A stretch of 51,821 nt of DNA from Clostridiales bacterium (GTDB taxonomy: Bacteria; Bacillota; Clostridia; Christensenellales; Pumilibacteraceae): assembly GCA_031255775.1 (NCBI GenBank), contig JAIRRW010000064.1:1-51821 (forward strand), written 5' to 3'. Both the position numbers and the translations under genes were made by a program. A model generated the notes under the pieces. The model had not been told where the DNA came from. It saw only the letters and a program-made list of their open reading frames with translations, and made no database searches. Positions 3,336-39,090 of this stretch are shown one piece after another (position 1 is the first letter of the stretch; every line of letters begins with the position of its first letter).

Positions 3336-3392
3336 CTAAGAACGACCGCGCTTGCGCTTGCATTTGAACGAAATCGGTAGCGTCATTCAAAA
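3336..3392. repeat. Copy K of the modular intergenic palindromic repeat family
   Basis: GCGCTTGCGCTTGCATTTGAACGAAATCGGTAGCGTCATTC matches the modules seen in copies F and I. It overlaps and supplies the last codons plus the stop of the FtsX permease. Confidence 0.5.
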
Positions 3393-5983
3393 GACTTTAG
3401 CGATTCGGTCATTTTGATTCGGCCGGTGCCCAGGGACATGACAAGGTTGATGACAAAGCCGGTGCCCAGCGTGATGAGCGACGCGTACAGGTAGGAGAGG
3501 CCGAAAAGCCGGTACAAAAACTGGACGACGGGCGTTTGGTTGATGGACAGCACCAAAACGGTCAGGGGGTAGCCCAGCCCCAGCCCCAAAATGCCGCCGA
3601 GGAGGGTCAGGATCATGACCTCGATCATCAGGGTGAGCGCGATCTCGCGCCGGCTAAAGCCCAGCACCTTGAGGGTGGCGATGTCGCGCTGCCGTTCGCG
3701 TTGGTTTAAGAGCGCGATGTTATAGAGGACGACGACGGCCAAAAGAATGGCGAATATCTTGAGCGTAAAGGTCATGAGCGAAATGCCGGACAGCGCGTCG
3801 TTGACCGATTGCCGAAACACCGCCGACGTAACGGCCAAAACGACGTCCGCGCGGGCGTTGAGCGCGTCGCCCACGGCGGCCGTGTCCGCGCCGGACGCCG
3901 CTTCCGCCCAGGCGTTGGCGCCCTTTTCGAAGAGCGCGGGATAGTCGGAGGCGTTGGCGACCAGGCCGTGAAGATAAAAGGCGTCAAACACGTGATCCAC
4001 CTCGGCCTCCAGCCTTTCGCCGTTGACGGTAAAGGCGATCCGATCGCCCGCCCCGGCGTTTAGGTCGTTGGCCGTCTTGACCGCCAGCGCGATCCTGCCC
4101 TTTCGTACCCGAATCGAACAGAACGCCGAATCGTCCTCGACGATGCGCAGCGTGGTCTGACAGCCGCTCTTGTCCGACACGGCCGAGACCGAAAGGGCGG
4201 CGTAGGTTTCGATGCGGGCGATGCCGGGCACGGACGCCGCGATCTCCGCCGCGTCGATCGCCGTATCGGGCATAAAGGTGATGCTGACGTCGCTTTTATA
4301 GAGCTCCTGCGAATCCAGCCGGACGCCGTAATCCAGCGTATCGTCGATGCCAAAGCCGCACAAAAGAAGCGCCATGCACCCCATGATCCCGGCCACCACC
4401 ATCACGCCCCGCGATTTTTTGGCCCTAAGGTTTCGAAGCGCCATTTTGAGCGGCATACGCCGGGTTTCTCGTTTAATATCGACCTCCGACGCGCGCCGGG
4501 GCGGGGTTTTTCCGTCGGCACGGGGCCGCGCGCTTGCCGCCGCCGCGTCCCGCCGATCGGACGGCAGTCTTTTTTGGGGCGCGGGGCCTATGGGGCGCAT
4601 ACTGTCGGCGGGCAGCCGGGCGATCTCCTTGCGGCAGCACAGATAGGCGACCAGCGCCGCCGCCGCCGCAAACACGCCAAGGATGCCGAGAATCTCGGGG
4701 ACGGGAAAGACCGGCGCCAGCCGCGGCAGCGAAAACAGCATTTTGTACTTTTGGTTCATGACGTTGGGGACGAGAATGGGGCCGGTCACAACACCGATGA
4801 CAAAGCCGATGGTGACCAGCGAGACCGTCAGCGACAGGTAGTGAAACAGGATGCTGCCGGTGGAAACGCCCAGCGCTTTCATCATGCCGATCTGCGTTTT
4901 TTCGCGGATGATGATCTGCGAAATGGTGGTCAAAATGACCAGCAGCGCGACGAGAAAAAAGATGACGGGAAAGACCAGCGTCATCTTTTGGGACTGCGTA
5001 ATATCCGACATGATCCCGGCGTTTGTGGAGAGGTTGCGGACGTCAAAGCAGCTCAAAAAATTGTTCGCCTCCCCTTTTTTAGAAAAATAGGCGCGAATGT
5101 CCGCCGAAACCGTTTCCGTCCGCGCCCCGCCCGCCGTGCGGATCACGTACTGGTTGGGCGCGGTGAGCTTTTCGAGCGTTTCGGTCATGTAGGGCCGGGC
5201 GGTCACAAGGGGCAAAAGCTGTTTGTCCAGCGCGTAATTTTCTTCCAAAACGGCCAGCGCGGTCTCGACGATATACGCGTGCCGGGTATAAAAATAGGAG
5301 ACGGCAAAGGCGCCGTTGTCCACGCATTCGGGGTGCGTCATGACGCCGGTCACGGTAAAGGGCAGGCTAAACGAATCGCCCGCCAGCACGTTTTTGCCCT
5401 CCGGCCGCAAAATGGCGCGCAAAAGCGGGGCAGCCTCCCCAAACTGCGCCTTCATGTCCGGCGTAAAGGGCAGCGTAAATTCGAAGGTCTGACCCAAAAT
5501 GGGGGTAAAGTCGGTGATTTCGGTCATCGCGCTCTCGGCGCCCCGCTGCTTGATGAGGATCTGCGCGGCCATACTTTTTTCCAGCATAAAGCCGGGCGTC
5601 CCCGCGATGATCTCGGCATAGGCGCTGATCGAGGCGTCCGCCGCCGCCCCCAGCCCCGATACGGCGGCGTTGTCGTGAAGGCCGGACAGCAGCAGCCGGG
5701 GCTCGGCCCGTTCGACCCCCGGGAGCGCTTCGAGCCTGCCCGCCTCGTCCGGGTCAAAATCGGACACCGTCACCCAGAGGTCGGCGATCCGGCCTGCGTC
5801 GTAGAGGGTTTGCACCCGTTTTTGCAGCGCCTTATAGTTGGCGGTAAACCCGGTAAACAGGCAGACGGCCAGCGCCGCGATGAGAATGATCGCCGCAAAC
5901 TGCAACAGGTTTTTGGCGATGTCGCGCCGTGTCTTTTTAAGGAGGATCGCGCCCGTTTTCACCATCTTCACCATTTTCACCAT
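3383..5983 (-). CDS. ABC transporter permease, FtsX-family with two FtsX domains (MacB-like)
   Basis: Two 4-TM FtsX-like regions are separated by large extracytoplasmic domains. The start was chosen at MVKMVKMVKTG, whose ATG overlaps the ATPase stop (ATGGTGA). The upstream 71 codons of the track ORF are Arg-rich junk. Confidence 0.8.
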   Translation of the reverse strand: MVKMVKMVKTGAILLKKTRRDIAKNLLQFAAIILIAALAVCLFTGFTANYKALQKRVQTLYDAGRIADLWVTVSDFDPDEAGRLEALPGVERAEPRLLLSGLHDNAAVSGLGAAADASISAYAEIIAGTPGFMLEKSMAAQILIKQRGAESAMTEITDFTPILGQTFEFTLPFTPDMKAQFGEAAPLLRAILRPEGKNVLAGDSFSLPFTVTGVMTHPECVDNGAFAVSYFYTRHAYIVETALAVLEENYALDKQLLPLVTARPYMTETLEKLTAPNQYVIRTAGGARTETVSADIRAYFSKKGEANNFLSCFDVRNLSTNAGIMSDITQSQKMTLVFPVIFFLVALLVILTTISQIIIREKTQIGMMKALGVSTGSILFHYLSLTVSLVTIGFVIGVVTGPILVPNVMNQKYKMLFSLPRLAPVFPVPEILGILGVFAAAAALVAYLCCRKEIARLPADSMRPIGPAPQKRLPSDRRDAAAASARPRADGKTPPRRASEVDIKRETRRMPLKMALRNLRAKKSRGVMVVAGIMGCMALLLCGFGIDDTLDYGVRLDSQELYKSDVSITFMPDTAIDAAEIAASVPGIARIETYAALSVSAVSDKSGCQTTLRIVEDDSAFCSIRVRKGRIALAVKTANDLNAGAGDRIAFTVNGERLEAEVDHVFDAFYLHGLVANASDYPALFEKGANAWAEAASGADTAAVGDALNARADVVLAVTSAVFRQSVNDALSGISLMTFTLKIFAILLAVVVLYNIALLNQRERQRDIATLKVLGFSRREIALTLMIEVMILTLLGGILGLGLGYPLTVLVLSINQTPVVQFLYRLFGLSYLYASLITLGTGFVINLVMSLGTGRIKMTESLKSFE

Positions 5984-6678
5984 TCGATCTCCGAAACGGC
6001 CTTGGGACGCTCGTTTTGCCGATCGGCGGCGATCCGGCCGTCCTGGATCCGAATGACGCGGGAGGCGATTTCGGCAATCTTGGCATTGTGCGTGACGATG
6101 ACGGTGGTGCGGTTTTGGCGGCGGCAGATGTCCTGCAAAACGCCCAAAATCGCCGCGCCGGTCTTGCTGTCCAGCGCGCCGGTCGGCTCGTCGCACAGCA
6201 AAAGCGCCGGGTTTTTGACAAACGCCCGCGCAATGGACACGCGCTGCTGCTCGCCGCCGGACAGCTGCGCCGGAAAATTCTTGAGACGGCGGCTAAGCCC
6301 CACCAGCTCCAAGGCCTCCCGCGCGTCCATCGGCCGATCGGCGACCGACTGCGCCAGCTGAACGTTTTCGAGCGCCGTGAGGTTGGGCATGAGGTTGTAA
6401 AACTGAAACACAAAGCCGATCCGGCGGCGGCGGAACTGCGCAAGGCGCTTGTTGTCAAACTCGTGAACGTTTTCGCCGTCGACCGCGTACGTCCCCTCGG
6501 ACAGGCGATCCATGCCGCCGATAATGTTTAAAAGCGTGGTCTTGCCCGCGCCCGACGACCCCAAAATAACGGCAAACTCACCGGGCGAAAGCGTCAGACT
6601 GACGCCGTCCAAGGCCGCCACGCGGTTCTCGCCGCCGCCGTAAATCTTAGAAACCTGATTGAGACGGATAAATTCCAT
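5977..6678 (-). CDS. ABC transporter ATP-binding protein (MacB/LolD-like)
   Basis: Walker A is GSSGAGKTT, the ABC signature is LSGGEQQRVSIARA, and Walker B is LLLCDEPTGALD. The start at MEFIRLNQV has GGAGGAACGCGC immediately upstream. The upstream 43 codons of the track ORF lie in a repeat region. Confidence 0.85.
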   Translation of the reverse strand: MEFIRLNQVSKIYGGGENRVAALDGVSLTLSPGEFAVILGSSGAGKTTLLNIIGGMDRLSEGTYAVDGENVHEFDNKRLAQFRRRRIGFVFQFYNLMPNLTALENVQLAQSVADRPMDAREALELVGLSRRLKNFPAQLSGGEQQRVSIARAFVKNPALLLCDEPTGALDSKTGAAILGVLQDICRRQNRTTVIVTHNAKIAEIASRVIRIQDGRIAADRQNERPKAVSEIEW

Positions 6679-6715
6679 GCGCGTTCCTCCAATAGCGCTA
6701 CCGCTTTCGGCCAAA

Positions 6716-6900
6716 CGTAAATGCCGCAAGCGGCATTTAGCCGAACTTAGATTCGGTGTCCGCAAGCAAAAAATGTCATTTTTGCTTGCTCCCGATTGAT
6801 TCGCCAAAATGCCGCTTACGCTCGCATTTTGGCGAGGAAAGAGGTGTCCTCAAACAAAAAACGTCGTTTTTGTAAAAAAGATTTAAGAGAAAGGTAGCTG
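6716..6900. repeat. Copy A of the modular intergenic palindromic repeat family (several hairpin modules)
   Basis: It contains the hairpins AAATGCCGCAAGCGGCATTT and GCAAGCAAAAAATGTCATTTTTGCTTGC. It also contains CGCCAAAATGCCGCTTACGCTCGCATTTTGGCG and CAAAAAACGTCGTTTTTGTAAAAAAGATTTAAGAGAAAGGTAGCTGCCGCG. These modules recur elsewhere in the window. Confidence 0.6.
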
Positions 6901-7025
6901 CCGCGTTTCGATAAAATGGGGCTCGGTCATATCGCATGGCCGGGAGCGGTCAGATCGCGTGTGTATCGCGTGCGCCCCCTTGCCCAGTCAGGCGCGGTCA
7001 GATTGCGTGTCAGACGGACAACAGG

Positions 7026-7080
7026 CGGTAAGGGGATGAGGGAGTGTACTTCCGGTACATGACCTCATCCCCTTACCGCA
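7026..7080. promoter_or_regulatory. Perfect 17-bp stem hairpin (GCGGTAAGGGGATGAGG ... CCTCATCCCCTTACCGC) with a palindromic loop (GTACTTCCGGTAC), downstream of glmM
   Basis: Read directly. It is preceded by 17-bp direct repeats GCGGTCAGATCGCGTGT and GCGGTCAGATTGCGTGT at about 6948 and 6994. No U-tract follows on either strand. Confidence 0.5.
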
Positions 7081-7112
7081 CGTAGTCCGTATCACACGTG
7101 ATATGGCCGCGC

Positions 7113-8402
7113 CTAAACCCGGTTGTTGATGAATCGCTTAAACCCGGCTAAGAGCTCGTCAACCAGTGTTGCATCCGCCGCCTCAACCATCACGCGCACC
7201 TTGGGCTCGGTGCCGCTCATGCGCACGATGACGCGGCCATGGCCGGACAGACGCGCCTCGGCGGCCTCGGTGAGGCGGCGCATCTCGCGGTCGTACATGA
7301 TCGAGGGATCGGCAAACTCGGCGATCGCCCGCTGGGGCAGGAGTTGTAGGGGGGTCATGGGGCGCAATTCGCCGTCCTTGTACAGCGAATCCGCCAAAAA
7401 CATGGCGCTCATGATGCCGTCGCCCGTCGTGGACTGCGGATAGACGATGTAATGCCCCGACTGCTCGCCCCCGATGTTGTAGCCCTTTCGGTACATGAGG
7501 TCGCAGATAAATTTATCGCCCACCGGCGTGCGCACCAGCCGCCGCCCCTCCTGTTGCAGCCGGGTCTCCAAGCCCAAATTATTTAGGATCGTGCCGACCA
7601 CCACGCCGTCCTTGATGTCTTGCATCCCGCGCGAAATGTTGTACAGGACGGTGTCGCCGTCCACGATCTCCCCGTCCATGACCACGCTCAGCCGATCGGC
7701 GTCGCCGTCAAACGAAAAGCCCAGCCGATAATCGGTGCCCTTCATGCTGTTGCGGACATAATAAGGATAGAGCGCGCCGCAGCCGCTGTTGATCTTTTCG
7801 CCCCGGAGCTTATAATTTTCGACGGTGACGGTCGCGCCCAACGACTCAAACGCCAGCCCCGCCACGGTGGACGCCGCGCCGTACCCGCAGTCCAAAAAGA
7901 CCTTGAGCCCCCTAAAGTCAGCCGACATGGCGCCCTTTAGGTATTGGATGTACTCCTCCTTCGAATCCGTCCGAACAAGTTTTTTTCCGCCGCCCGGCTT
8001 GCGCACAGGCGGATTGTCGATATAATATTCGACGCTGCCCTCCTGATCCTCGGTCAGCTTGACGCCGTTTCCGTCGAATACCTTGATGCCGTTGTACTCG
8101 GGCGGGTTGTGGGACGCCGAAATCATGATGCCGCACTTGGCGCCGCAATGAATGGCAAGCCGCGCCACCGCGGGCGTGGGCAGAATATCGACCACGTACA
8201 CGTCCCCGCCCATCGAGGTGATCCCCTCGACCAACGCGCTTTCGAGCTCCTCGCCCGACACGCGCGTGTCCCGGCCCACCACGAACTTGCCGACGCCGAA
8301 ATACCCGCACAGCGCCACGCCCGTCTTGTAGGCCAGTATGTCGTCCAGCTTTTCGCCGTACTTGCCCCGAATCCCGTCCGTCCCGAAATATTTATTGCTC
8401 AT
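7113..8402 (-). CDS. glmM: Phosphoglucosamine mutase
   Basis: The active-site motif SASHNPPEYNGIK is present. The N-terminus is MSNKYFGTDGIRG, and full-length alpha-D-phosphohexomutase architecture is present. Confidence 0.9.
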   Translation of the reverse strand: MSNKYFGTDGIRGKYGEKLDDILAYKTGVALCGYFGVGKFVVGRDTRVSGEELESALVEGITSMGGDVYVVDILPTPAVARLAIHCGAKCGIMISASHNPPEYNGIKVFDGNGVKLTEDQEGSVEYYIDNPPVRKPGGGKKLVRTDSKEEYIQYLKGAMSADFRGLKVFLDCGYGAASTVAGLAFESLGATVTVENYKLRGEKINSGCGALYPYYVRNSMKGTDYRLGFSFDGDADRLSVVMDGEIVDGDTVLYNISRGMQDIKDGVVVGTILNNLGLETRLQQEGRRLVRTPVGDKFICDLMYRKGYNIGGEQSGHYIVYPQSTTGDGIMSAMFLADSLYKDGELRPMTPLQLLPQRAIAEFADPSIMYDREMRRLTEAAEARLSGHGRVIVRMSGTEPKVRVMVEAADATLVDELLAGFKRFINNRV

Positions 8403-8589
8403 ATATGTATCTTGTCCGCTCCTCGGTGGATTTGAGAACCTGTCGCAACGAACAGGTTCTTATTACAGTATATTGGCATTATATAGGTTTTGTCCCGATT
8501 TGGCAAGAAATACGCTGCCGCTATCGCGCGAATGTGCCCATTCGCGCGAGGGATAAGGCACTCATTTTTATTTAGGGTGTGGCCGTTCG

Positions 8590-8619
8590 TTGACAAAAGG
8601 CGTTTGGGGCGTGTACAAT
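8590..8619 (+). promoter_or_regulatory. Sigma-A promoter for apgM (TTGACA-18-TACAAT)
   Basis: The -35 TTGACA sits at about 8590-8595 and the -10 TACAAT at about 8614-8619. A GGAGGA SD lies 7 nt before the GTG start at 8652. Confidence 0.6.
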
Positions 8620-9917: not shown

Positions 9918-10280
9918 ATGATCTTGGATCGGATTCACGAAGACCTCGAGCGCAACGAAAAAAGCACGCCCTCGGCCAAGCTGCACACCAATCTCCAGAT
10001 CGTCTCGGCGCTGGGGAGCGTTTTGCTGTTGCTGGTGAGTTTTGTGCTCTTTTTTGTGGACGAGGACATCTGGCGCCGGGTGTTTGGCGCCTGCCTCTAC
10101 CCGATCGTCATCCTATTGATCCTATCCTTTTACTGCGGCATTGCCCAGATATTCCGCCAGCGCCTAAAGCGCAACCTGTTGTTTTTGATCGTCGCCCTCC
10201 TGTGCGTAGCGGCCGTCGTCGGGACGGTCATCTACGAGGTCGGCGTCTTCGGCGCCTTTTATATCCCGCCGTTTAACTGA
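9918..10280 (+). CDS. Hypothetical small membrane protein (3-4 TM)
   Basis: The ORF starts with ATG. Hydrophobic helices include LGSVLLLLVSFVLFFV, YPIVILLILSFYC and LLFLIVALLCVAAVVGTVIY. No family was recognised. Confidence 0.45.
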   Translation: MILDRIHEDLERNEKSTPSAKLHTNLQIVSALGSVLLLLVSFVLFFVDEDIWRRVFGACLYPIVILLILSFYCGIAQIFRQRLKRNLLFLIVALLCVAAVVGTVIYEVGVFGAFYIPPFN

Positions 10281-10289
10281 CGCTGACGC

Positions 10290-10338
10290 TTTCGATAAAA
10301 TGAAAGCGCAAGCGGCATTTTGGCGATAGCGGCAGCGT
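10290..10338. repeat. Copy D of the intergenic repeat family
   Basis: GATAAAATGAAAGCGCAAGCGGCATTTTGGCGATAGCGGCAGCG lies between the convergent membrane-protein gene and lysC. Confidence 0.5.
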
Positions 10339-11664
10339 TTAAATAAATTCGCGGTACAGGCAGGCGATTGCCTTTTCGTAATCGGCATTGTCCACGCCGA
10401 TGATGATATTGAGCTCGCTGCTGCCCTGATCGATCATGCGGATGTTGACGTCGGCACGGTACAGGCAAGAGCAGACCTTGGCCGCGGTTCCCTTTTTTCG
10501 GAGCATTCCGTGGCCGACGACCGCGATGAGCGCGATGTCCCGGACAATATCGATGACGTCCGGCCGACAGGTCTTGACGATCTCGGCCAAAATGTCCTCC
10601 ACCGTCTCCGGCTCGACGCCCGTCCCGTCAATAACGATGCTCAAAGTGTCCACGCCCGTGGGCATATGCTCGATGGACAGCCCCTTATTTTCGATGGCGG
10701 AGAGAACCCGACGCGCAAAGCCCAGCTCGTTGTTCATCATGGACTTTTCGATAAAAATGGCAAAAAAATCCTTTTTGCCCGCAATGCCGGTCACCGTGCT
10801 ATCCCGGCGCGTAAATTCGCCCTTAAAGAATTTTTTGGTGGGCACGATCAGCGTGCCGGGCGCAGCGGGGTTAAAGGTGTTGCGGATATTGATGGGAATG
10901 TCGTTTTTTCGCACCGGGAAAATGGATTCGGGGTGCAGGACGTTTGCGCCCATGTACGAGAGCTCTCTGAGCTCCTTATAGGTGATCATGCCGATCAATT
11001 CCGGGTCCTCGACGATGCGCGGGTCGCACATCAAAAAGCCGTCGACGTCCGTCCAGTTTTCGTACATATCGGCCAGGACCGCGCGGGCGACGATCGCGCC
11101 GGACACGTCCGAGCCGCCGCGCGAAAAGGTGCGGATCTCCCCCGCCTCGTCCGCGCCGTAAAACCCCGGCAGTACCAGCCTTGTGCGGCCGCAAAGCGCT
11201 TTTTTCATCAAGACGTCGGTTTCCTCGGCCATAAAACGCCCGGCGTCGTCAAACCGAATGAGTTCCTTGGTGTCGCAAAACGTCCAGCCGAGCGCGGCCG
11301 CCATGACCTTGGCGCTCAAATATTCGCCGCGGCTGGCGATATAATCGGCGGTCGTGCCCCGATCGAGCCTTTCGATGATCCCGTCGTATTCGGCGGACAG
11401 GTCCATTTTTAGCCCCAGCCCGCCCACGATGTCGTCAAAGCGCGTCCTGACCGGCAAAAAGGCGTCGGCCGCGGCCTGCCCCGCCTTGACCGCCCGAAAG
11501 GCGGCGTATAAAAGGTCGGTCACCTTGGCGTCCCCGGCCTCGCGCTTGCCCGGCGCCGATACCACCACATAGCCCGCGTCCGGGTCGGACAAAACGATCT
11601 CCTTAACTCTCTTGATACAACCGGCGTTTGCCATGGACGTGCCGCCGAACTTCAATACTTTCAT
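10339..11664 (-). CDS. lysC: Aspartate kinase
   Basis: The N-terminus is MKVLKFGGTS. It has an amino-acid kinase fold and two C-terminal ACT-like regions. Confidence 0.9.
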   Translation of the reverse strand: MKVLKFGGTSMANAGCIKRVKEIVLSDPDAGYVVVSAPGKREAGDAKVTDLLYAAFRAVKAGQAAADAFLPVRTRFDDIVGGLGLKMDLSAEYDGIIERLDRGTTADYIASRGEYLSAKVMAAALGWTFCDTKELIRFDDAGRFMAEETDVLMKKALCGRTRLVLPGFYGADEAGEIRTFSRGGSDVSGAIVARAVLADMYENWTDVDGFLMCDPRIVEDPELIGMITYKELRELSYMGANVLHPESIFPVRKNDIPINIRNTFNPAAPGTLIVPTKKFFKGEFTRRDSTVTGIAGKKDFFAIFIEKSMMNNELGFARRVLSAIENKGLSIEHMPTGVDTLSIVIDGTGVEPETVEDILAEIVKTCRPDVIDIVRDIALIAVVGHGMLRKKGTAAKVCSCLYRADVNIRMIDQGSSELNIIIGVDNADYEKAIACLYREFI

Positions 11665-11669: not shown

Positions 11670-11740
11670 AACCTCTTTCAAACGCTGCCGCTTGCGATAA
11701 AATGCCGCTTGCGCTTATAGTAAGCCGAACGCTACCTAAG
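11670..11740. repeat. Copy E of the intergenic repeat family (inverted orientation relative to D)
   Basis: CGCTGCCGCTTGCGATAAAATGCCGCTTGCGCT is the reverse complement of the copy D module. Confidence 0.5.
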
Positions 11741-11889
11741 TCGTGTTGACACGCGTGTAATCGAGCAAGTTTTTAGGGATTTTTGTGTCTGTTGAAACGA
11801 TTTTTCGCAGGGCGTAGCAGCGCTACGTGCAAGAAAATTCGTGATAACAGACGCGAAAAGAGCAAAAACCTGCCGATTATTATCTCGTG

Positions 11890-13068
11890 TCAACACGACC
11901 TAATATAACGCGCTTCGATATAATACCGTTTTTCGTCCGCCTCGCCCATCGAAAAGGTCTTTTTGGGCAGGGGGCCGTGCTGGACAATGTAGGGAAAGAG
12001 CGCTTCCTTTTGCATTTTACGGAGGACGATGCCCACGCCGCCGGTTCGGCTTGCGACGGCCTTTAGCTCGGCCTCGCCGTGGATATAGTCGATCTCCCCG
12101 CCCTTTTCCGCTTGGTACGCCTCTAAAAACGCGTCCACGGCCTTGACGGCGTCGATCGCGTTTTCGGGCACAAAAAGCCGGACGGCGTCCCCGCCGACAT
12201 AGCCCGCGGTGCGCGCCCCGCCCTTGATACGGGCGGCGTACGCGGCCAGAAAATCGGCGGCGTCGATGCCGTGAATGACCCGATGAATGGGCTCAAACAG
12301 GATGCCCGGGTCATAAATATTGACCGCCTCGACCAGCGCGTACTTGGATTTTGGGTTCGCGTCCGTCCGGCAGGCCTTGGCCGTCGCCAGCGAATGGTTG
12401 CCGTCGCCTACCAAAAACAGCAGCTCCTCGCCGTACACCCTTTTCGCGCGCAGGACAAGCGCGTCCAGCGCGGCGGAAAGCCCCCGCGTGTCCGTGACTT
12501 GATACCCGGTGATCCGTCCGCCGTTGCCGTTTAATTCGCCCTCGTACAGGACGGGGGCGCTGGCGGCTCTATAGGGGCCCAAGACCGAGTCGGCGGGGTC
12601 GTCGTACAGCGCCATGATGTGCGGAAGCTCCAGCAGGCAGTCCTTGCGGACGGCGACCCGCGGCGGCACCCGCTCGGGGACGACCGCTTCGGTCGCGCGG
12701 ATCAGCGTTTTTTCGCCGCGAACCACCGAATAATCGTCCAGATCCACCAGCAGCATCAGGCCGTGATGCGTGTGGCCGTAGGCGGTTTCGCGCTTTAGGA
12801 CGACCGTGCCGTCCACCGCCCGAAACAGGCCGTCCGCCGCGTACCGCGCCTGCGTCTCGATGATCGAACGGATACGCTTTTCCTTGCCCGGCGCGTTTAG
12901 GTACGCCTCGGGAAAAATGAGGTTGAGCGTTGTCGGCGGCGTCAGGCTCTCCTCCAAGCCCCGCCAATAAGCGGGATTGGACGAATACTGGTCACAGGCC
13001 ACGACCGCCCAATTGCGCACATCCGGCTCTTTAGGGAGAACGATCTCCCCAAAACGAAAACAACCCAT
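11890..13068 (-). CDS. Conserved hypothetical protein, DUF1015-like
   Basis: It is about 392 aa. The N-terminal VVACDQYSSNPAYW motif resembles the DUF1015 family. Confidence 0.5.
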   Translation of the reverse strand: MGCFRFGEIVLPKEPDVRNWAVVACDQYSSNPAYWRGLEESLTPPTTLNLIFPEAYLNAPGKEKRIRSIIETQARYAADGLFRAVDGTVVLKRETAYGHTHHGLMLLVDLDDYSVVRGEKTLIRATEAVVPERVPPRVAVRKDCLLELPHIMALYDDPADSVLGPYRAASAPVLYEGELNGNGGRITGYQVTDTRGLSAALDALVLRAKRVYGEELLFLVGDGNHSLATAKACRTDANPKSKYALVEAVNIYDPGILFEPIHRVIHGIDAADFLAAYAARIKGGARTAGYVGGDAVRLFVPENAIDAVKAVDAFLEAYQAEKGGEIDYIHGEAELKAVASRTGGVGIVLRKMQKEALFPYIVQHGPLPKKTFSMGEADEKRYYIEARYIRSC

Positions 13069-13120: not shown

Positions 13121-13310
13121 ATCGACCTGTTCTAATTTTAACAGACCTGTTCTAAACCCAATCGTGAATGGATAAACGAGGATATATTTTGTCCGCCGAG
13201 GAAAAGGTTCTTTTTGGTAGCAGCGCTACCAAAAACGGTTCTTTGACGACGGCGGGCGGAATATAGGCCGTTTAGCCGTCACGATTGGTTGCAAGAACAG
13301 GTCTCATTCT
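13121..13310. mobile_element. MITE-like unit: imperfect inverted terminal repeats about 25 bp long flanking about 100 bp that contain a GGTAGCAGCGCTACC hairpin
   Basis: The left arm is CGACCTGTTCTAA...CAGACCTGTTCTAAACCCAATCGTGA. The right arm is TCACGATTGGTTGCAAGAACAGGTC. The AGAACAGGTC/GACCTGTTCT and CCAATCGTGA/TCACGATTGG pairs are reverse complements. Confidence 0.4.
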
Positions 13311-16722: not shown

Positions 16723-16789
16723 AGCGGCGCTAGTATCCGACAGAAAACGGGATTTTATGCGCTGCCGCTGACGCTGACGCTTTCGCTCA

Positions 16790-16925
16790 AACGCCGCTAC
16801 GCTTGCGTTGTGAGCGAGGGATAAGGCACTTTTTGACAAAAAACGTCGTTTTTGTCAAAAAGATTTAAGAGAAAGATAGCTGACGCGTTTTTGTCAAAAA
16901 GATTTAAGAGAAAGATAGCGGTTGC
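16790..16925. repeat. Copy B of the intergenic repeat family, including a 38-bp internal tandem duplication
   Basis: GAGCGAGGGATAAGGCAC is followed by GACAAAAAACGTCGTTTTTGTCAAAAAGATTTAAGAGAAAGATAGCTGACGCG. The segment TTTTTGTCAAAAAGATTTAAGAGAAAGATAGCGGTTGCG then repeats. Confidence 0.6.
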
Positions 16926-17683
16926 GTTAAAAAGTATTCGACGGCGGCGATGCTGCGCTTGGAGGCCTCCAGGACAAATTCGTAAAAGCTCCCCACCGCT
17001 TTTTCGTCGGCGTTGTCCGAAACGGACCTAAGCGCGGTAAAGGGCACATTCAGCTCAAAGCAGACCTGCGCGACGGCGGCGCTCTCCATATCCACCGCGC
17101 TTGCGCCGAACTGTTCTTTTAAATACCGCGCCGTTTGCGAATCGTCGATAAACCGGTCGCCGGACGCCACCGTCCCCTTAAAGCAGGAAAACCCCAGGGC
17201 GCGCGCGGCGGCGTAGAGCCCCTCGCACAGGGTCGGATCGCAGGGGATAAAGGGCGACCCGTACCCCTGTATCTGCCCGGGCAGGAGGCCGTCGGCCACC
17301 GCCGAATAGTCGTGCTGTACCGCGCTTGCCGCCACGACGATGTCCTTTTGCTTTAGGGGCGCGATGCCGCCCGCCACGCCCAGATTGATGAGGGCGTCGG
17401 GGCGAAAGCGTTCGATCATGACGGATGCCGCCATGGCGGCGTACACCTTTCCGACGCCGCAGCAGCACAAAACCACGTCCCGGCTTGCCAGCCGCCCGGT
17501 AAAAAAGGTCAGCCGCCCGATCGTATAGGCCGAAAGCGCCGAAAGCCGCGCCTTTAAGCCCTCCGTTTCAAGCGCGAGCGCGCCGATAATCCCGATTGGC
17601 GCCGCCGCTTTTGCGCAAGCGTCCCCCTTCGCGCGGCCATGCCCGTCCCCGTCAAAAGAATCGGACGCAAAACCCTTGCGCAT
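16904..17683 (-). CDS. mtnN: 5'-methylthioadenosine/S-adenosylhomocysteine nucleosidase
   Basis: The PNP/UDP phosphorylase fold is present (APIGIIGALALE...MESAAVAQVC). The ATG at 17683 has an AGGAGGTGGG SD. Confidence 0.85.
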   Translation of the reverse strand: MRKGFASDSFDGDGHGRAKGDACAKAAAPIGIIGALALETEGLKARLSALSAYTIGRLTFFTGRLASRDVVLCCCGVGKVYAAMAASVMIERFRPDALINLGVAGGIAPLKQKDIVVAASAVQHDYSAVADGLLPGQIQGYGSPFIPCDPTLCEGLYAAARALGFSCFKGTVASGDRFIDDSQTARYLKEQFGASAVDMESAAVAQVCFELNVPFTALRSVSDNADEKAVGSFYEFVLEASKRSIAAVEYFLTQPLSFS

Positions 17684-18747: not shown

Positions 18748-19170
18748 CTACGCCCCGTCCGCGCCCGGCTGCTCGGTAAAATAGGCGACGATAACCCCTT
18801 CGCCCGGCGCCTCGCCCTCGCGGGCAAGGCTCATGTCGTATAGAATCGCGTTTTTGACGAGGCCGCCGACCGCCTCGAATACCGGGAGCTTAAACAGGCG
18901 GCCCGCAAACACGGTAAAAGCGATGAGCCCGGCGATGCCCAGCCGGACAAGCAGGCCGCGCCGGGGCGGGTCGGTCTTTTGATAGCCCGCCCCGCCGTAA
19001 CCCGTCCCGCCGTAACCGCCGCCCCGCCGGCTATAAGCGCCGCCGCGCGTTGTGCGCCGCCGCTGGTTGTCGATCAGCGTAACCTCGGCCACGTCGATCC
19101 CGTCGTATTTTCCCATAATAGATTGTATGAAACGGGAGAGGGGAAAAATGACACTTTTCCCCTCGGACAC
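18748..19170 (-). CDS. Hypothetical Gly/Tyr-rich single-TM protein occupying the spoIVFA position
   Basis: A low-complexity RGGAYSRRGGGYGGTGYGGAGYQ region is followed by a TM helix (LLVRLGIAGLIAFTVFAGRLF). There is no M23/LytM domain. The start is uncertain. Confidence 0.4.
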   Translation of the reverse strand: MSEGKSVIFPLSRFIQSIMGKYDGIDVAEVTLIDNQRRRTTRGGAYSRRGGGYGGTGYGGAGYQKTDPPRRGLLVRLGIAGLIAFTVFAGRLFKLPVFEAVGGLVKNAILYDMSLAREGEAPGEGVIVAYFTEQPGADGA

Positions 19171-33682: not shown

Positions 33683-33784
33683 AAAATTCCCCTCCTGTTT
33701 TTGTGCCTTAGCTATCATACCACAGCGGCCGAACAAGCGTCGGCCGATTACCCTATATCATAGCATATCCCATACGGACTTGTA

Positions 33785-34020
33785 AAGAAAAACGCTACCG
33801 CTTTTTCGGCCAAACGCGAATGCCGGAGGCATTCGGCCGAACTTTTACGGTGTCCGCCCCCAAAAAGTGTCATTTTTGGGGGCTCCCTTTTTTATCGAAA
33901 ACCATAAACAAAGCACACCCAAAAAAATTGGGAGCAAACAAAAACGACGCTTTTTGTTTGCGGACACCTTATCCCTCGTTCAAATGAAAGCAACGCGTCA
34001 TTTGAACGAAAGCGTCAGCG
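33785..34020. repeat. Copy H of the intergenic repeat family (composite, about 235 bp)
   Basis: CGAATGCCGGAGGCATTCG is followed by CCGAACTTTTACGGTGTCCGCCCCCAAAAAGTGTCATTTTTGGGGGCTCCC. Then come CAAACAAAAACGACGCTTTTTGTTTGCGGACACC and TTATCCCTCGTTCAAATGAAAGCAACGCGTCATTTGAACGAAAGCGTCAGCGTT. It supplies the stop of the TSUP C-half gene. Confidence 0.6.
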
Positions 34021-34473
34021 TTTTTTGTAAATCGTGATTTTTTCCTGCGATTCGCGGCGTTTCAGGTCGGCCGCCTTCCGTTTTTCGGCGCGTCTTTTTT
34101 TGACAAAGGCGCGGACGATGCCGGACAGCTGCCAGACGCCCAGCACGATGAGGAATATGCCGAAATACATCCGCAGGGAGCCCGCCTCGACACGGCGTGC
34201 CAAAATCGCGCTGAACACACTGCTGACGACCGCCGGGACGGCCATGAGCGGGAGGTATTTAAACTCGACCAGGCCGTTTTTGATGTGGATGATGAGCGCA
34301 ACCGCCGACATCGGGATAAACGCGATGAGGTTGACCGCCTGGGCAGCGTGCTGCTCGGTCTCGGTCAGCATGGTCAAGAGCGGGATCAAGAGCGTGCCGC
34401 CGCCCATGCCCATGCCGCCGATCAGGCCGCCGACCGCGCCGATAAGCACAAACAGAATGATTTTTAGGGTCAT
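34015..34473 (-). CDS. TSUP (TauE/SafE) family transporter, C-terminal 4-TM half
   Basis: It carries the DUF81 repeat with a GGGT-type glycine motif (GGMGMGGGTLLIPLL). It is 152 aa. Confidence 0.7.
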   Translation of the reverse strand: MTLKIILFVLIGAVGGLIGGMGMGGGTLLIPLLTMLTETEQHAAQAVNLIAFIPMSAVALIIHIKNGLVEFKYLPLMAVPAVVSSVFSAILARRVEAGSLRMYFGIFLIVLGVWQLSGIVRAFVKKRRAEKRKAADLKRRESQEKITIYKKR

Positions 34474-34499: not shown

Positions 34500-34612
34500 T
34501 GTTGACACTACTTAAATCTTTTTTACAAAAACGACGTTTTTTGTAAAAAAGTGCCGTATCCCTCGTTCAAATGAAAGCAACGCGTCATTTGAACGAAAGC
34601 GGTAGCGTTAGC
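34500..34612. repeat. Copy I of the intergenic repeat family, located between the two TSUP halves
   Basis: CTTAAATCTTTTTTACAAAAACGACGTTTTTTGTAAAAAAG is the inverted form of a copy A module. It is followed by GTGCCGTATCCCTCGTTCAAATGAAAGCAACGCGTCATTTGAACGAAAGCGGTAGCGTTAGC. The last 8 codons plus the stop of the N-half gene lie inside the element. Confidence 0.6.
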
Positions 34613-34962
34613 TTTATGCCCACCGCGATCATCAGGCACGCAAAGAGGAGCCCGACGACCTCGGGCTTGAGCTTTTTTAGGAGCAGCGCGCCCAAAACGC
34701 CGCCCCCCAGGCAGCCGGCCGAGGCGAACGCGGCGGGGAACCATTGAAAATGGCCGTTTAGGATATAGGTGACGGCGCTGGCGATGCTGACGGGCAAAAT
34801 CACCGCAATCGCGGTCGCGTGGGATTTTTTGACGGGACACTTGAGCGCCTTTTCCAGCGCGGGAACCAGCAGCATCCCGCCGCCCCCGCCGAAAAACCCG
34901 TTGACAAAGCCGATGACGGCCGACAGGAGCCCCGCGCCGCCGTACTTGAGAATTTTCTTCAT
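34585..34962 (-). CDS. TSUP (TauE/SafE) family transporter, N-terminal 4-TM half
   Basis: It carries the DUF81 repeat (GFFGGGGGMLLVPAL). The start is uncertain: ATG at 34962 or TTG at 34980. Neither has a clear SD. Confidence 0.6.
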   Translation of the reverse strand: MKKILKYGGAGLLSAVIGFVNGFFGGGGGMLLVPALEKALKCPVKKSHATAIAVILPVSIASAVTYILNGHFQWFPAAFASAGCLGGGVLGALLLKKLKPEVVGLLFACLMIAVGIKLTLPLSFK

Positions 34963-35108
34963 GGAACATAGTTTTACCAAAATTTACGCAAAATACCACT
35001 GCGGCGGCAAATGGGCAAAGCATGTGTTATTCGGGGCCAAGCGGGCGGGCGGACGGGCTTGCGCGGCGCGAAACCTCCAAGTTTTTTGCAAAAGCGGAAG
35101 TAAAACGT

Positions 35109-35137: not shown

Positions 35138-35233
35138 TGTAAAATGTATTGTATCGTGCCTAGGTATGCTCCGATGCGGACAAGCCGCGGCGCGGACACG
35201 AAACTTGATTAACACAAAAGGTGATGAAAGAGA

Positions 35234-38200
35234 ATGAAGTTCACGCGTTGTCTAAAGAAATATTTTGTTGCGATTACCGCCGCGTTTTTGGCGCTGGCCT
35301 TGGGATTCTGCTATGCCTCTCTCCGCTTTCCCGGCGCGTACGCCGCCGACGAGGATGCCTTTGACGACAGCCGGTATTTGATTTGGACAGCCCCCCTGAC
35401 GATCGCCGACGGTCAATTTGACAGCGGCAGCGGCGTTTTGGGTACGCCCTCCTCCTGGACGGGCGAGCGGGTCTCGGGCGCCGAGCCCGTCACGGGCATT
35501 TTGGATCTCTCCGCCTATTCGGCCAACGTTGACTCGTACAAGCTCAAGGACAGATACGACGAATTTAAAAACGACGCGCCCGATTCGCCCTTTGGCAAGG
35601 CGAACGATTCGTCCAAGGGGTTTGAGGGCAGCAACCGCAAGGTTCTTTTGATCAATTCGGACGGCAACACTACGACCTACGGCTACCGCTCGCAGGCCTT
35701 TACGCTGGAGCCCGCCTCCTATTACGGCATTTCGGTGTGGCTTAGGACGGGCGCGTTTCACGGAAAGTCCGGCGCTTCCGTCGTGATAGACGGCTTTGAC
35801 GGCAAGGACAACAAAAACATCGGCATCTACAACATCGACACGACCAAAATCGCCGACCCCGCCGAGGACGATTACCGGGTGGGCTGGCGCGAACACACGA
35901 TCTATATCGCGACGCCCGCCTACACCGCCACCGAGGCCACGCTGACGCTCTCGCTGGGCGCGGCGGATCGGGTCGGGAGCGGCGAGGCGCAGGGCTATGT
36001 CATGTTTGACAACATTACGGCCAAGCAGTATTCGCCCAAGACCTTTGCCGACGCCTTTCATTTCGAATCGGTGTCGGAGGACGGCACGGGCCGGTATTTT
36101 GACCTGTATGACGGCGTTCCGGTCGAGAACGGCGATTTCTCGTCCTTGCCCGATTTTTGGTCGGGCGTAAAGGGGAGCGACGCCAACGCGCTCGTCCGCG
36201 ACGTCGAGGGGGGCGCCTACGCCTACGACCATTTCGGCATGGAACGCTATGCCTACGCGCCCGGCTTTACGGACGTGGGCACAAACCGCATCCAACTGAT
36301 CACCTCTTACGACGAAACGAAGGACGCCTTTAAGGAAGGGTACAACGGCATCATCTCCGAGGAAATCGAGGTCAAGCGGTATGCCCTGTACCGGGTCGCC
36401 TTTTGGGCCAAGACCGAAAGCCTTTCCGGCGGGGGCGCGACGGCCGCCGTCCATTACAAGGCGGTGGGCGCTCCGGAGGAGACCGAATCAAAGGAGACGC
36501 GCATGACCGGCGTGACCGGGGACGAGAGCAATTACGCGCGTTTCGGCTGGAAGCAGCACGCCTTTTATATTCGCGGCTCGGCCTATTTTGATTTTAAGAT
36601 TCAGATCGAGCTGGCTCTTGGGAGCAAGGACAGCAAGGGCAAGGGGCTTGTCCTCTACGACGACGTGACCATGGAGACGCTGACGCCCACCCGGTTTGCG
36701 GCCTTTGCCGAGGGCGACGGAACCAAGGTCGAGCTGGACAGCGTGACCGACGAGTCCGGGCTGACAAACGGCAATCTGGACAAGGCCGGCGAATATGAGG
36801 AGCTGGTCTACCCCCTCTACGACAATCCGCTGCCGCCCGAGGGGTGGACGCTGACAAAACCCAGCGCCAACGACGCGGCGGGATACGACAAGACCGACCG
36901 GGGCGCCGACGACATCGTTAGCGGGCTGGTGCCCGTCGAGGATATTATCAGTCTCAACCTAGACAAGGCCTACGGCGGGGCGCTTCGCCTCTCTTCGCCC
37001 ACCCTGACGGCGTTTGCCTATAAGAGCAGCGGCATCACGGTCGCCGCGTCCACGGCCGAGGCGCCCGTCTATAAGGAGATCGCCGTGACGCTGGCGGTCA
37101 GCGACATCAGCGGGTACGGCGCAAGTTTGGTTTTAAAAAACGGCGCTTCGACCGTCGCGAACATCGAGGGCATCCGGGATACCCTCGCCAAAACGCAGAC
37201 CTATAAATTTTATGTCAAGGGCGGCAACGCCGAGGCCGCGATGACCCTGGAGGTCTGGCTGGGCATGGCCAACCGTCTAAACGCCGCGCCCAAGCTGAGC
37301 GCGGGCGACGTCTTTGTCACCGGCGTACGGGTGACCGATTCGACTGCGGAGGCGTACGACGCGGCGGCGGCAAGCTACAAGGTCGATCGGCGTCACGCTG
37401 TGGAGGACGGCCTCGACTACGCCGTCGTCCCCCTCACGGACAACCAGTTTTATCTGTTTGACAACTTTGACACCGACAACAACGCGGGACTGCCCAACCA
37501 GGTCAAGCATCCGTACAACTGGTCGATGTCAACGATCGGCGACCAAAGGCTGGTGCGTTACGGCATTTTCGCCGCCGACCCGATTTCGGGCAGTCAGATC
37601 CCGGCCGCCTTTAAAAACCCGCTGGGCGCGCCCTATATCCTACTGCTGGAAAACCTGGCCGACACCGCCAGCACGCTGACGCTGGACACGCCCTACGCCC
37701 TCTCCGCTTCCGGCTATTATAAGCTGTCCGTCGCGGTCAAGGTCGACCTAAACGACGCGGCGCGCGACAGCGGCAAAATGCTGGGCGCCTCGATCAAGCT
37801 TTCCTCGGGGGATTTTGTCTTTAAGGACATTAAGGACACCTCGAAAAAGCCGGTGGGCGACACCAATTTAGACCCCGACAAAGAGGTTTTTCGGACCTAT
37901 ACCTTTTATATCAAGGCGGGTGACGCCGAGAGTACGCTCGGCCTGACCTTCGGGCTGGGCGGCAGTGAAAATCCCGGCCAGCGGATCGCCGGACGGCTGT
38001 ATATCGGCGACATCACGCTCGAAACGATCGACAACGTCGCCTATGACGACGCCGCCGACCGCTATGCCGCGCTAAAGAAAAACAACGACAGGGACGTCAA
38101 TGAGGCCGAGGAATACGCCACGACCATGATCGTCGATCAGTCGTCGGCCGCACAGCCCGAGGAGGGCGGGGATACGCCCGACGCGGACGCGGGCTGCGGC

Positions 38201-38914
38201 GACATTCAGTGGTGGCTGATCCCCTCCATTCTGCTGGCCGTCCTGTTGATCGTCGTCGTCGTCGGCAGCTTTATCCGCCGCAAGATCGACAACCGACCCA
38301 AGAAGGTCACCGTCAAAAAAGCGGCCTCCTACGACAGACGCCTTGTCAGCCTTGACGAGGAGGAAGTCACGGTAGACGCCGCCGGAAAGACCGTTTCCGT
38401 CAAGACGCCCGATTCGTTTGAATCGTTTGACGACGACGCCGAGCCCGCCGCCGAAAAGCCGGTCAAAAAGCCGAAGCCGGTCAAGGAAGTGCGCGGCGAC
38501 GAATTTGACGAAACGGACGACCTAGAGGACGCAGACGACGCGGACGACGCGGCCAACGCGGCCAACGCGGCCAACGCGGCCAACGCGGCCAACGCGGCCA
38601 ACGCGGCCAACGCGGACAACGCGGACAACGCGGACAACGCGGACAACGCGGACGACGCGGACAACGCGGCCAAGACGGACGAAATGAACGACGCGGACAA
38701 CGCGGACGACGCGGCCAAGGATGAAACGCCGGAGCCGACGGAGGCCGCCGCGCCCGCAGACATGGCCGAACCCGCGCCCGCCGAACCGACGACGGAACCC
38801 GCATCGGAACCCGCGGCCGACAAAACGACCGCGCCCGACGAGAAAGCGGAGCCGGACGAAAAGGCCGCGCCCAAGAAAGCGTTTGGCGGCTTTGAGGACG
38901 ACTTTGAGGATTAG
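35234..38914 (+). CDS. Large type-I membrane/surface protein with four CBM_4_9-like beta-sandwich modules and an acidic repetitive cytoplasmic tail
   Basis: The N-terminus has a signal peptide (MKFTRCLKKYFVAITAAFLALALGF...AYA/AD). About 980 aa of ectodomain carry four recurring modules that end in W..H.FYI / YKFYVKGG / TYTFYIKAGD patterns. One TM helix follows (IQWWLIPSILLAVLLIVVVVGSFIRRK). A D/A/N-rich tail of about 200 aa follows (DADDAANAANAAN...). Confidence 0.7.
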   Translation: MKFTRCLKKYFVAITAAFLALALGFCYASLRFPGAYAADEDAFDDSRYLIWTAPLTIADGQFDSGSGVLGTPSSWTGERVSGAEPVTGILDLSAYSANVDSYKLKDRYDEFKNDAPDSPFGKANDSSKGFEGSNRKVLLINSDGNTTTYGYRSQAFTLEPASYYGISVWLRTGAFHGKSGASVVIDGFDGKDNKNIGIYNIDTTKIADPAEDDYRVGWREHTIYIATPAYTATEATLTLSLGAADRVGSGEAQGYVMFDNITAKQYSPKTFADAFHFESVSEDGTGRYFDLYDGVPVENGDFSSLPDFWSGVKGSDANALVRDVEGGAYAYDHFGMERYAYAPGFTDVGTNRIQLITSYDETKDAFKEGYNGIISEEIEVKRYALYRVAFWAKTESLSGGGATAAVHYKAVGAPEETESKETRMTGVTGDESNYARFGWKQHAFYIRGSAYFDFKIQIELALGSKDSKGKGLVLYDDVTMETLTPTRFAAFAEGDGTKVELDSVTDESGLTNGNLDKAGEYEELVYPLYDNPLPPEGWTLTKPSANDAAGYDKTDRGADDIVSGLVPVEDIISLNLDKAYGGALRLSSPTLTAFAYKSSGITVAASTAEAPVYKEIAVTLAVSDISGYGASLVLKNGASTVANIEGIRDTLAKTQTYKFYVKGGNAEAAMTLEVWLGMANRLNAAPKLSAGDVFVTGVRVTDSTAEAYDAAAASYKVDRRHAVEDGLDYAVVPLTDNQFYLFDNFDTDNNAGLPNQVKHPYNWSMSTIGDQRLVRYGIFAADPISGSQIPAAFKNPLGAPYILLLENLADTASTLTLDTPYALSASGYYKLSVAVKVDLNDAARDSGKMLGASIKLSSGDFVFKDIKDTSKKPVGDTNLDPDKEVFRTYTFYIKAGDAESTLGLTFGLGGSENPGQRIAGRLYIGDITLETIDNVAYDDAADRYAALKKNNDRDVNEAEEYATTMIVDQSSAAQPEEGGDTPDADAGCGDIQWWLIPSILLAVLLIVVVVGSFIRRKIDNRPKKVTVKKAASYDRRLVSLDEEEVTVDAAGKTVSVKTPDSFESFDDDAEPAAEKPVKKPKPVKEVRGDEFDETDDLEDADDADDAANAANAANAANAANAANAANADNADNADNADNADDADNAAKTDEMNDADNADDAAKDETPEPTEAAAPADMAEPAPAEPTTEPASEPAADKTTAPDEKAEPDEKAAPKKAFGGFEDDFED
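38534..38668 (+). repeat. 15 tandem 9-bp units inside the cytoplasmic tail coding region of the surface protein
   Basis: The units read GACGACGCG x2, GCCAACGCG x7, GACAACGCG x4, GACGACGCG, GACAACGCG. They encode (DDA)2(ANA)7(DNA)4DDA DNA. Confidence 0.8.
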
Positions 38915-38955
38915 GGTTCACAACGAGATTTGAAAAGCATATAACCGCTTTTAGC

Positions 38956-38990
38956 GTCAAAGACCGTCGGTAAAGCCGACGGTCTTTGAC
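38956..38990. terminator. Perfect 15-bp-stem hairpin (GTCAAAGACCGTCGG TAAAG CCGACGGTCTTTGAC) between convergent genes
   Basis: Read directly. It lies 42 nt after the surface-protein stop and about 90 nt after the stop of the minus-strand gene. The flanks are A/T-rich but carry no long U-tract. Confidence 0.5.
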
Positions 38991-39024
38991 TATAGACAGC
39001 GCAACATAAAACGGGAGCGGACAC

Positions 39025-39090
39025 CTTATTTCCTCGCCAAACTGCAAGTAAACCGGCATTTTATCGAAAGCGGTCGCGCTATAGCGTCAG
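39025..39090. repeat. Copy J (degenerate) of the intergenic repeat family
   Basis: GCGGACACCTTATTTCCTCGCCAAACTGCAAGTAAACCGGCATTTTATCGAAAGCGGTCGCGCT was read directly. Confidence 0.45.

Follow-up and report, generated by a model that had tools for sequence, protein, structure and literature searches.

A modular family of small palindromic repeats, probably non-autonomous mobile DNA, in contact with gene ends on a contig from an uncultured Clostridia lineage

Repetitive extragenic palindromic (REP) sequences and their mosaics (bacterial interspersed mosaic elements, BIMEs), the REP doublets known as REPINs, and the BOX, Correia and ERIC elements belong to families for which nested insertions, open reading frame (ORF) ends that are damaged or extended, and restriction to one lineage are typical. 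In REPINs, singlets are regarded as decayed doublets and compensatory stem changes are common (PMC3116915), while the signature of a REP is a 5′ GT(A/G)G directly followed by the palindrome (PMC3686654). Here, we describe a family of short repeats on a contig of the metagenome-assembled “Clostridiales bacterium” (NCBI/JGI), the whole of which (51,821 bp) is called the window below. As in the families just mentioned, its members form mosaics, occur in both orientations, include a copy that is probably untranscribed, have inverted ends, and comprise a doublet along with decayed singlets; nested insertions, altered ORF ends and confinement to one lineage are seen here as well. We read them, with a probability of roughly 0.6, as a lineage-specific family of small (about 50–240 bp), non-coding and non-autonomous repeats of the MITE (miniature inverted-repeat transposable element), REPIN or BIME kind, which, as a kind, is ordinary, although the family itself is new.

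The five modules named in the original prediction are present where it had placed them and far above chance. Compared with 100 dinucleotide shuffles, in which no match was expected for any of the three, the 33-nt hairpin-2 module has three matches in the window, a second hairpin variant two and the hairpin-1′ module four. The 14-nt tail CGAAAGCGGCAGCG, searched with at most two mismatches, yields 21 matches (1.8 expected) and CGGACACC seven (2.0 expected), while CGAGGGATAAGG, listed in the prediction as a separate module, turns out to be the inter-hairpin linker read on the opposite strand. A covariance model of the kind proposed there (R1, i.e., linker, hairpin 2 and tail) was built from an alignment (A1) of ten copies, two rows of which are the two strands of one element (D). 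Its search of the window returned the ten training copies and four lower scorers (elements B, 25 bits; A, 19.3 bits; I, 17.5 bits; E, 17.2 bits), so that the 14 matches amount to 13 loci, all within positions 3309–39079, with nothing convincing in the rest of the window and no loci on shuffled sequence. The count covers the 52-kb contig only. Seven loci lie on the plus strand and six on the minus strand, in agreement with the predicted occurrence of both orientations, and together they occupy 11 of the approximately 23 spacers of at least 45 nt. The expectation of at least 12 intergenic copies is thus borne out in number, though not in the strict sense of intergenic, as the ends of three ORFs fall within elements; the general description of a dense, modular, BOX/MITE-like palindromic family holds.

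A type-1 unit consists, in this order, of GGGAG, hairpin 1, CGGACACC, the linker TTATCCCTCG, hairpin 2 and the 14-nt tail. Hairpin 1 has a variable outer stem of 5 bp, a constant inner stem (A5/T5) and the loop YGACR(C); hairpin 2 has a variable outer stem, the core AAATG...CATTT and the loop AAGYGNAAGCG. On the opposite strand, the tail is hexamer-periodic (C-GCTGCC-GCTTTC-G), and extra hexamers lengthen it in elements F and L. Subtype 1a is represented by G (19134–19224, plus strand), a full copy taking up most of a 108-nt intercistronic spacer, and by H (20493–20584, plus strand), in which hairpin 1 has decayed. In subtype 1b, i.e., B (6695–6793, minus strand) and I (33793–33887, minus strand), hairpin 2 is nested, B being a full copy with GGGAG, hairpin 1 (CAAGCAAAAA/TTTTTGCTTG), CGGACACC, the nested hairpin 2 and the tail. 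In type 2 (F, K and B2), the GGGAG end is swapped for CTTTCTCTTAAATCTTTTT, a 14-bp A/T hairpin and GTGCC. K (34511–34607, plus strand) is devoid of the left terminal repeat and carries a hairpin 2 identical to that of J (33930–34020, plus strand). B2 (6800–6910, minus strand) is a hybrid with a type-2 head (CTTTCTCTTAAATCTTTTT, hairpin 1′, AGGACACC, hairpin 2), and downstream of its hairpin 2 come CGAA, TCAATC and the GGGAG of B. Hence, the locus at 6.7–6.9 kb consists of two diverged units in tandem and not of an internally duplicated copy; the internal tandem duplication that the prediction had assigned to its copy B, 39 nt long (16836–16929), sits instead in the 16.8-kb copy, F (16760–16926, minus strand). 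F is a type-2 element with a hexamer-lengthened tail and inverted terminal repeats (CGCAACCGCTATC ... CGAAAGCGTCAGCG), its left terminal sequence CGCAACCGCTATC being the inverted counterpart of the tail.

Besides these lone and tandem units, the arrangements include an inverted doublet, a minimal tail–hairpin–tail form and remnants. Inverted tails of 14–17 nt bound three elements: F, the minimal form D (10281–10337), made of an inverted tail, hairpin 2 and a tail, with an imperfect 22-bp stem, and the palindromic I–J doublet (33788–34025), in which the two units stand head to head between 17-nt inverted tails (AAAAACGCTACCGCTTT / AAAGCGTCAGCGTTTTT; 88%). Type-1 units that stand alone carry a tail at just one of their ends. 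Partial copies are A (3348–3382, plus strand), reduced to the loop and right arm of hairpin 2 and the tail CGAAATCGGTAGCG, C (8513–8561, minus strand), with GTGCC-TTATCCCTCG, hairpin 2 (CGCGAATG/CATTCGCG) and the tail, and E (11683–11736, minus strand), with a degenerate hairpin 2 and the tail. L (39013–39078, plus strand) lacks hairpin 1, which was deleted so that GGGAG is fused to CGGACACC, and continues with a degenerate hairpin 2 and the tail. Units measure 49–167 bp and the doublet 238 bp. As for MITEs in general, the elements stay below about 300 bp, have no coding capacity and feature terminal inverted repeats: no reading frame is conserved across copies and no conserved peptide is encoded. 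A small ORF starting at an ATG in the loop of hairpin 1 was considered and discarded (frames and lengths differ among copies, and J has ACG), as was a promoter role for the TTGACA of the type-2 head, which has no −10 box at the proper distance.

The predicted folds of full copies are far more stable than those of shuffled sequences (z = −4 to −7, e.g., −5.2 for B and −6.7 for G), and z is about 0 for the remnants A, E and L. In the hairpin 2 alignment, 93% of cells are paired and six of the 12 pairs have changed on both sides, a level of compensation reached by none of 500 shuffles and approached by no slid register. Likewise, the outer stem of hairpin 1 differs in each of four copies (AGGGG, CAAAC, CAAGC, CCCCC), with perfect complementarity over 10–11 bp in every case, the decayed hairpin of H aside. 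Stem pairing was thus kept, which shows, across the 13 related copies, that palindromy is constrained, or kept up by some mechanism, while the sequence drifts. Such pairing fits a folded RNA or a folded single-stranded DNA alike and does not say which; neither strand is consistently more stable by prediction.

No curated RNA family covers the elements: the Rfam 15 covariance search gave no match on them even at E-values up to 5, and only a tRNA-Ala in the window reaches its gathering score. In the terminator scan, the elements do not have the form of an intrinsic terminator (hairpin plus U-tract), with the single exception of hairpin 1 of element I on the plus strand, which is fortuitous in that no gene runs into it. 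C lies between two divergent sigma-70-like promoters (TTGCCA-17-TATAAT, minus strand, 8506–8478; TTGACA-18-TACAAT, plus strand, 8590–8619), and H lies between the mreB stop codon and a canonical terminator (20431–20407, minus strand). Because of these two placements, the elements are neither the terminators of the genes nor tied to one transcript strand.

Position relative to genes is the most regular feature of the elements. The tail always points toward the nearest gene and the GGGAG end toward the interior of the spacer. Tails touch nine gene 3′ ends, six of them at 0–2 nt from the stop codon: A abuts the TGA of an FtsX-type permease gene (3383–3385, minus strand; 0 nt); D occupies the entire spacer of a convergent pair, at 0 nt from the TGA of a 120-aa ORF (10278–10280) and 1 nt from the aspartokinase TAA (10339–10341); G abuts the TAG of a minE-like gene (19225–19227, minus strand; 0 nt); H ends 2 nt from the mreB stop (20587–20589); and L directly adjoins a TAG (39079–39081; 0 nt), the last four codons of this gene (TLTL*) coming from a second, tail-like copy (39082–39096). 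If five such ends were placed at random in their spacers, the joint probability would be about 8e-8. At the other three 3′ ends, the ORF extends 1–7 codons into the element and stops there: the tail of J contains the TGA of a TauE-like gene (34015–34017), the upstream TauE-like ORF enters K by seven codons (..LTLPLSFK*, stop 34585–34587) and the purine nucleoside phosphorylase ORF enters F by seven codons (..TQPLSFS*, stop 16904–16906). K and F had at one point been taken to be flush with stop codons, a view that the frame check overturned. The alignment of the phosphorylase with a homologue ends at ..EYFL, before ..TQPLSFS*, while the aspartokinase beside D retains the natural C-terminus of its homologues. 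Taken with the ORFs that enter J, K and F, this natural end indicates that some elements lie directly behind a native stop and others directly ahead of one.

The remaining tails closely precede a ribosome-binding site, namely that of an ABC ATPase gene (start 6678) for B and, at about 8 nt, that of the aspartokinase for E, or a promoter −35 box (C and I), the tail of I adjoining that of the rnf operon promoter. Outside all 14 tails, the adjacent three bases read W-D-R and never include C; half of these triplets are TAA, TAG or TGA, two of which are not used as stops. As a side observation, K is located between two neighbouring half-size TauE/TSUP-like membrane-protein genes (34015–34473 and 34585–34980), and the ORF listed at 34523–35023 on the same strand as these genes is a spurious frame.

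This regularity could also reflect a function in RNA. According to such an explanation, the elements would be cis-acting modules of 3′ untranslated and intercistronic regions, spread by selection for that role rather than by selfish transposition, with a hairpin 14 nt past the stop, at about the leading edge of the terminating ribosome, that could block 3′-to-5′ exonucleases or modulate termination or upstream expression. Wherever a copy follows a gene end it does so tail first, and hairpin 2 begins 14–16 nt past the stop. Moreover, on the tail-first strand of G, J, K and F, the stem of hairpin 2 grows by CUUUCG/CGAGGG, thanks to two G-U pairs whose counterparts on the opposite strand are C-A mismatches, and stems covary while loops and linkers are conserved. 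REP sequences of E. coli are known to stabilise upstream mRNA, and REPs no more than about 15 nt away from a stop codon reportedly reduce expression through ribosome stalling (Liang, Rudd and Deutscher are said to have described this in 2015). However, B, B2 and E are oriented against local transcription, C lies between divergent promoters, predicted stability shows no consistent strand asymmetry, and the G-U extension is one inherited feature instead of a set of independent events. In addition, the relatives have no such element at the same gene junctions, and the ORFs that enter elements resemble insertion damage and not design. We therefore consider an origin as RNA modules unlikely. Both orientations relative to transcription and the probably untranscribed copy C favour an element acting at the DNA level; on the choice between a mobile element and a structured RNA, left undecided in the prediction, the evidence leans toward mobile or selfish DNA, and a role as structured RNA may still have been gained after insertion.

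A different explanation would make the 14-nt tail itself the DNA signal (a protein-binding site, an uptake-type sequence or a Chi-like site) and the hairpins secondary, inverted pairs doubling as intergenic hairpins as the pairs of DNA uptake sequences in Neisseria and of uptake signal sequences in Haemophilus do. The tail is indeed the most frequent and best conserved module, at about one per 4 kb, and in D an inverted tail pair surrounds a hairpin between convergent genes. It also contains AGCGG, which is the Chi sequence of Bacillus subtilis, and addAB is encoded in the window. Nonetheless, good tail copies never occur without hairpin 2, the matches inside genes being two-mismatch ones at chance level, whereas uptake sequences and Chi sites are typically frequent within genes too, and orientation is unbiased. 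With neither a strand bias nor good free-standing copies inside genes, the Chi or uptake reading was rejected, and we deem a tail-borne signal very improbable in any form.

The host has no close sequenced relative, since the best match of its aspartokinase among 5.8 billion proteins is just 67% identical. At five syntenic loci from near relatives by this protein (L089, L090, L091, L143 and L144; 64–67% identity), no module was found, in line with the family being specific to its lineage. The spacers at these loci are much shorter, e.g., 15 nt between the DUF1015 gene and the aspartokinase gene in L089, and in the four loci measured (L089–L092) G+C is 37–51%, against about 59% in the host. Three of these relatives (L089, L090 and L091) keep the gene order DAC–DUF1015–aspartokinase. 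Regarding other collections, blastn of the doublet against plasmid and phage sequences returned no match, two scans of viral contigs gave chance matches only, and the six-frame peptides of the elements found nothing among the 5.8 billion proteins. A metagenome-contig scan with a 22-mer present three times in the window yielded three chance coding matches and did not recover the window itself. The scan of genome contigs with CATTTNNNCGAWAGCGNYAGCG gave chance matches inside genes among the matches listed and one hairpin-like match, in Clostridia MAG152 (L043), that proved to be the conserved aldolase-gene terminator of the Faecivicinus clade. This terminator occurs once per locus in L145–L147 and is absent in L148–L151; as a conserved single-copy terminator, it was not counted as evidence of a widespread family.

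Parts of H and of a neighbouring repeat recur, at 100% and 99.5% identity respectively, in two independent contigs of the same species assembled from the short reads of another sample (Logan SRR14710884). Both end at repeats, one of them (L088) at the foot of hairpin 2 of H. An artefact of assembly or binning, which would be conceivable for a contig from a metagenome-assembled genome, is therefore extremely improbable: the overlapping parts recur at 99.5–100% identity in contigs from the other sample, the copies differ from each other, and they sit in an intact, syntenic order of housekeeping genes.

If the elements are mobile DNA, as we favour, the replicative form would probably be the one delimited by two inverted tails, i.e., the doublet, F and D, and single units and fragments would be decay products. 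Decay could have proceeded by the loss of an arm from a long, unstable palindrome, by collapse across the palindromic hairpin 2, by slippage in the hexamer tail, or by interruption through a second MITE family. Movement would depend on a transposase encoded elsewhere in the genome, and insertion would be into A/T-rich sites, which in a compact genome of 59% G+C would mostly be stop codons and their surroundings. This proposed preference would account for the tails at gene 3′ ends, some of which have taken the place of the final codons and the stop. After insertion, the elements would be carried as stable hairpins in 3′ untranslated and intercistronic regions. Candidate target duplications are a direct GTAAA at the doublet (33782–33786 and 34027–34031) and TTTAA at D; if the latter is real, two convergent stop codons that overlapped would have been separated by the insertion, and each of them restored.

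In a strict REP/REPIN version of mobility, an HUH tyrosine transposase (a REP-associated tyrosine transposase, RAYT, of the IS200/IS605 type), encoded elsewhere by a single-copy gene, would cleave and rejoin single-stranded DNA that carries the hairpins; no target duplication would be expected, and the two hairpins and their conserved flanks would serve as recognition elements. In its favour, there is an inverted doublet with the capacity for a long hairpin, the singlets have the look of decayed doublets, GTAG occurs in about half of the tails, and firm target duplications are not seen. Yet, the REP signature is missing: GTAG or GCAG stands 8 nt 3′ of hairpin 2 (CTAC upstream on the other strand), and upstream of hairpin 1 stands GGGAG (on the other strand, GGTGTCCG). 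Furthermore, a single doublet among 13 loci is far from the predominant arrangement, REP families are usually near-identical within a genome while the present copies are diverged, and the window encodes no RAYT. We thus regard this narrower mechanism, too, as unlikely.

Several observations weigh against non-autonomous mobile DNA as such. No transposase is found among the genes of the 51,821-bp contig, and no empty site was found in the window or in the overlapping contigs of the second strain, which has the same elements wherever it overlaps the window, without presence/absence polymorphism. The candidate target duplications are too few, too short and too A/T-rich to be firm: the left TTTAA of D is offset by 4 nt, the left GTAAA of the doublet is one base away from the A-run of the repeat, and neither F nor the single units have flanking direct repeats. 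The copies are rather diverged, and several are degenerate, so that transposition is not demonstrably recent; the recent mobility put forward in the original prediction consequently finds no backing in an empty site, a firm target-site duplication or a transposase, whether in the window or in the one overlapping second strain. Finally, the combination of conserved loops and stems that vary freely would be compatible as well with a protein that recognises a folded single strand, with mobility or without it.

The contact with stops might be more than a by-product of A/T-rich targets. The elements could be mobile DNA aimed at translation stop sites, or a selected 3′-end module whose hairpin stands one ribosome footprint (14 nt) behind the stop, with conserved loops and linkers read by a dedicated putative protein; we give these two variants, taken together, quite a small chance. 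If either were true, the gene 3′ ends of this lineage would be systematically remodelled, with new stops and new C-termini (such as ..LTLPLSFK* and ..TQPLSFS*). If the favoured interpretation as non-autonomous mobile DNA is correct, a well-defined repeat family is added from a deep, uncultured Clostridia lineage, for which the catalogue of such families is poor. The way tails meet stop codons would then be a simple, testable case of a mobile element coexisting with a compact genome, the target itself restoring the stop. From a practical point of view, short-read assemblies are interrupted by the repeats, at which two independent contigs end, and gene callers are misled, several long spurious ORFs and three real C-termini passing through elements; they might also be used as strain-typing markers. 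The results imply no new biological principle.

The window is otherwise occupied by core chromosomal genes: an ABC/FtsX transporter, a phosphoglucosamine-mutase-like protein, aspartokinase, a protein with a diadenylate cyclase domain (Pfam DAC), holA, purine nucleoside phosphorylase, minDE, mreB, maf, ppx, metG, the rnf operon, addAB, dnaA and guaB. Its G+C is 54–65% per 2-kb window and about 59% overall. Look-ups for two of its proteins found no record. A second, unrelated MITE-like family of about 160 nt is represented at 3178–3335, 11740–11899 and 13143–13304, with a solo end at 13123–13133 and a small palindrome at 8432–8460; it features terminal inverted repeats of 11–15 bp (GACCTGTCTTGACGA, GTCGTGTTGACACG, AGACCTGTTCT) and the central palindrome GTAGCAGCGCTAC. 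Two of its copies abut remnants of the main family: the left part of A was lost beside the copy at 3178–3335, and the end of E opposite to its tail abuts the copy at 11740–11899, which has direct CTAA flanks and contains the stop of the DUF1015 ORF (11890–11892) in its right repeat.

Other repeats and structures were noticed along the way. A long imperfect hairpin (6990–7114; 60-nt arms, 80% complementary, 5-nt loop), present once in the window, overlaps the stop of the phosphoglucosamine-mutase-like gene (7113–7115) by two bases, and its arm is partially repeated, in direct orientation, at 6915–6990. Three tandem 43-nt units (766–895; 86–95% identical to the reference copy) separate tRNA-Ala(CGC) (578–653) from the 3′ end of a Band-7 gene, and a same-species contig from the other sample ends within this array. 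A 9-nt tandem array (38462–38776) in the membrane-anchored 1226-aa ORF at 35234–38914, which has no Pfam match, codes for repeats of the DADNA/NAANA type in an acidic C-terminal tail. Upstream of addA, the 260-nt spacer holds two copies of the direct repeat GGGTTKATACGGGCTRCGTTTGTCTTGCC (about 40048–40085 and 40197–40235). Lastly, a weak Rfam match to AsdA, the antisense RNA of dnaA mRNA, at 48840–48907 inside dnaA (48002–49390) scores 30 bits, below the gathering score of 52, and is probably due to chance.

Among described systems, enterobacterial REPs and BIMEs and the RAYT-mobilised REP doublets of Pseudomonas (REPINs) resemble the present family in being dense, short extragenic palindromes, joined by linkers into mosaics, in both orientations, with an inverted doublet forming a long hairpin, decayed-looking singlets and compensatory stem changes, often just after stops and co-transcribed. 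Unlike them, the elements described here have no 5′ GT(A/G)G directly upstream of the palindrome, combine two different hairpins and a hexamer-periodic 14-nt tail in each unit, are far more diverged from copy to copy, and reside in a member of the Clostridia instead of a proteobacterium. The BOX elements of Streptococcus pneumoniae (boxA-boxB-boxC) are likewise non-coding intergenic modules of a Firmicutes genome, with pairable terminal parts and varied numbers and combinations of modules; BOX keeps its module order, whereas the heads are exchangeable here and inverted doublets and a minimal tail–hairpin–tail form occur. To our knowledge, there is no sequence similarity to the BOX modules, the likeness being one of modular design only.

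Correia elements (MITEs of Neisseria), ERIC/IRU and RUP share with our family a size of 100–250 bp, terminal inverted repeats, A/T-rich targets near genes (a preference proposed for the present elements), co-transcription, altered gene 3′ ends, and the coexistence of full-length and internally deleted forms. Correia elements have a fixed TA target duplication, the present family candidate ones; here, the inverted repeats are only 14–17 nt long and the interior is made of two hairpins with conserved loops. Finally, the RPEs of Rickettsia and the MIRUs of mycobacteria also touch or enter ORFs and supply codons or stops to host genes. RPEs do so in frame inside genes and are translated throughout, while the elements of the window contribute only the last 1–7 codons, and MIRUs, in contrast to the palindromic elements described here, are tandem direct repeats that contain small ORFs.

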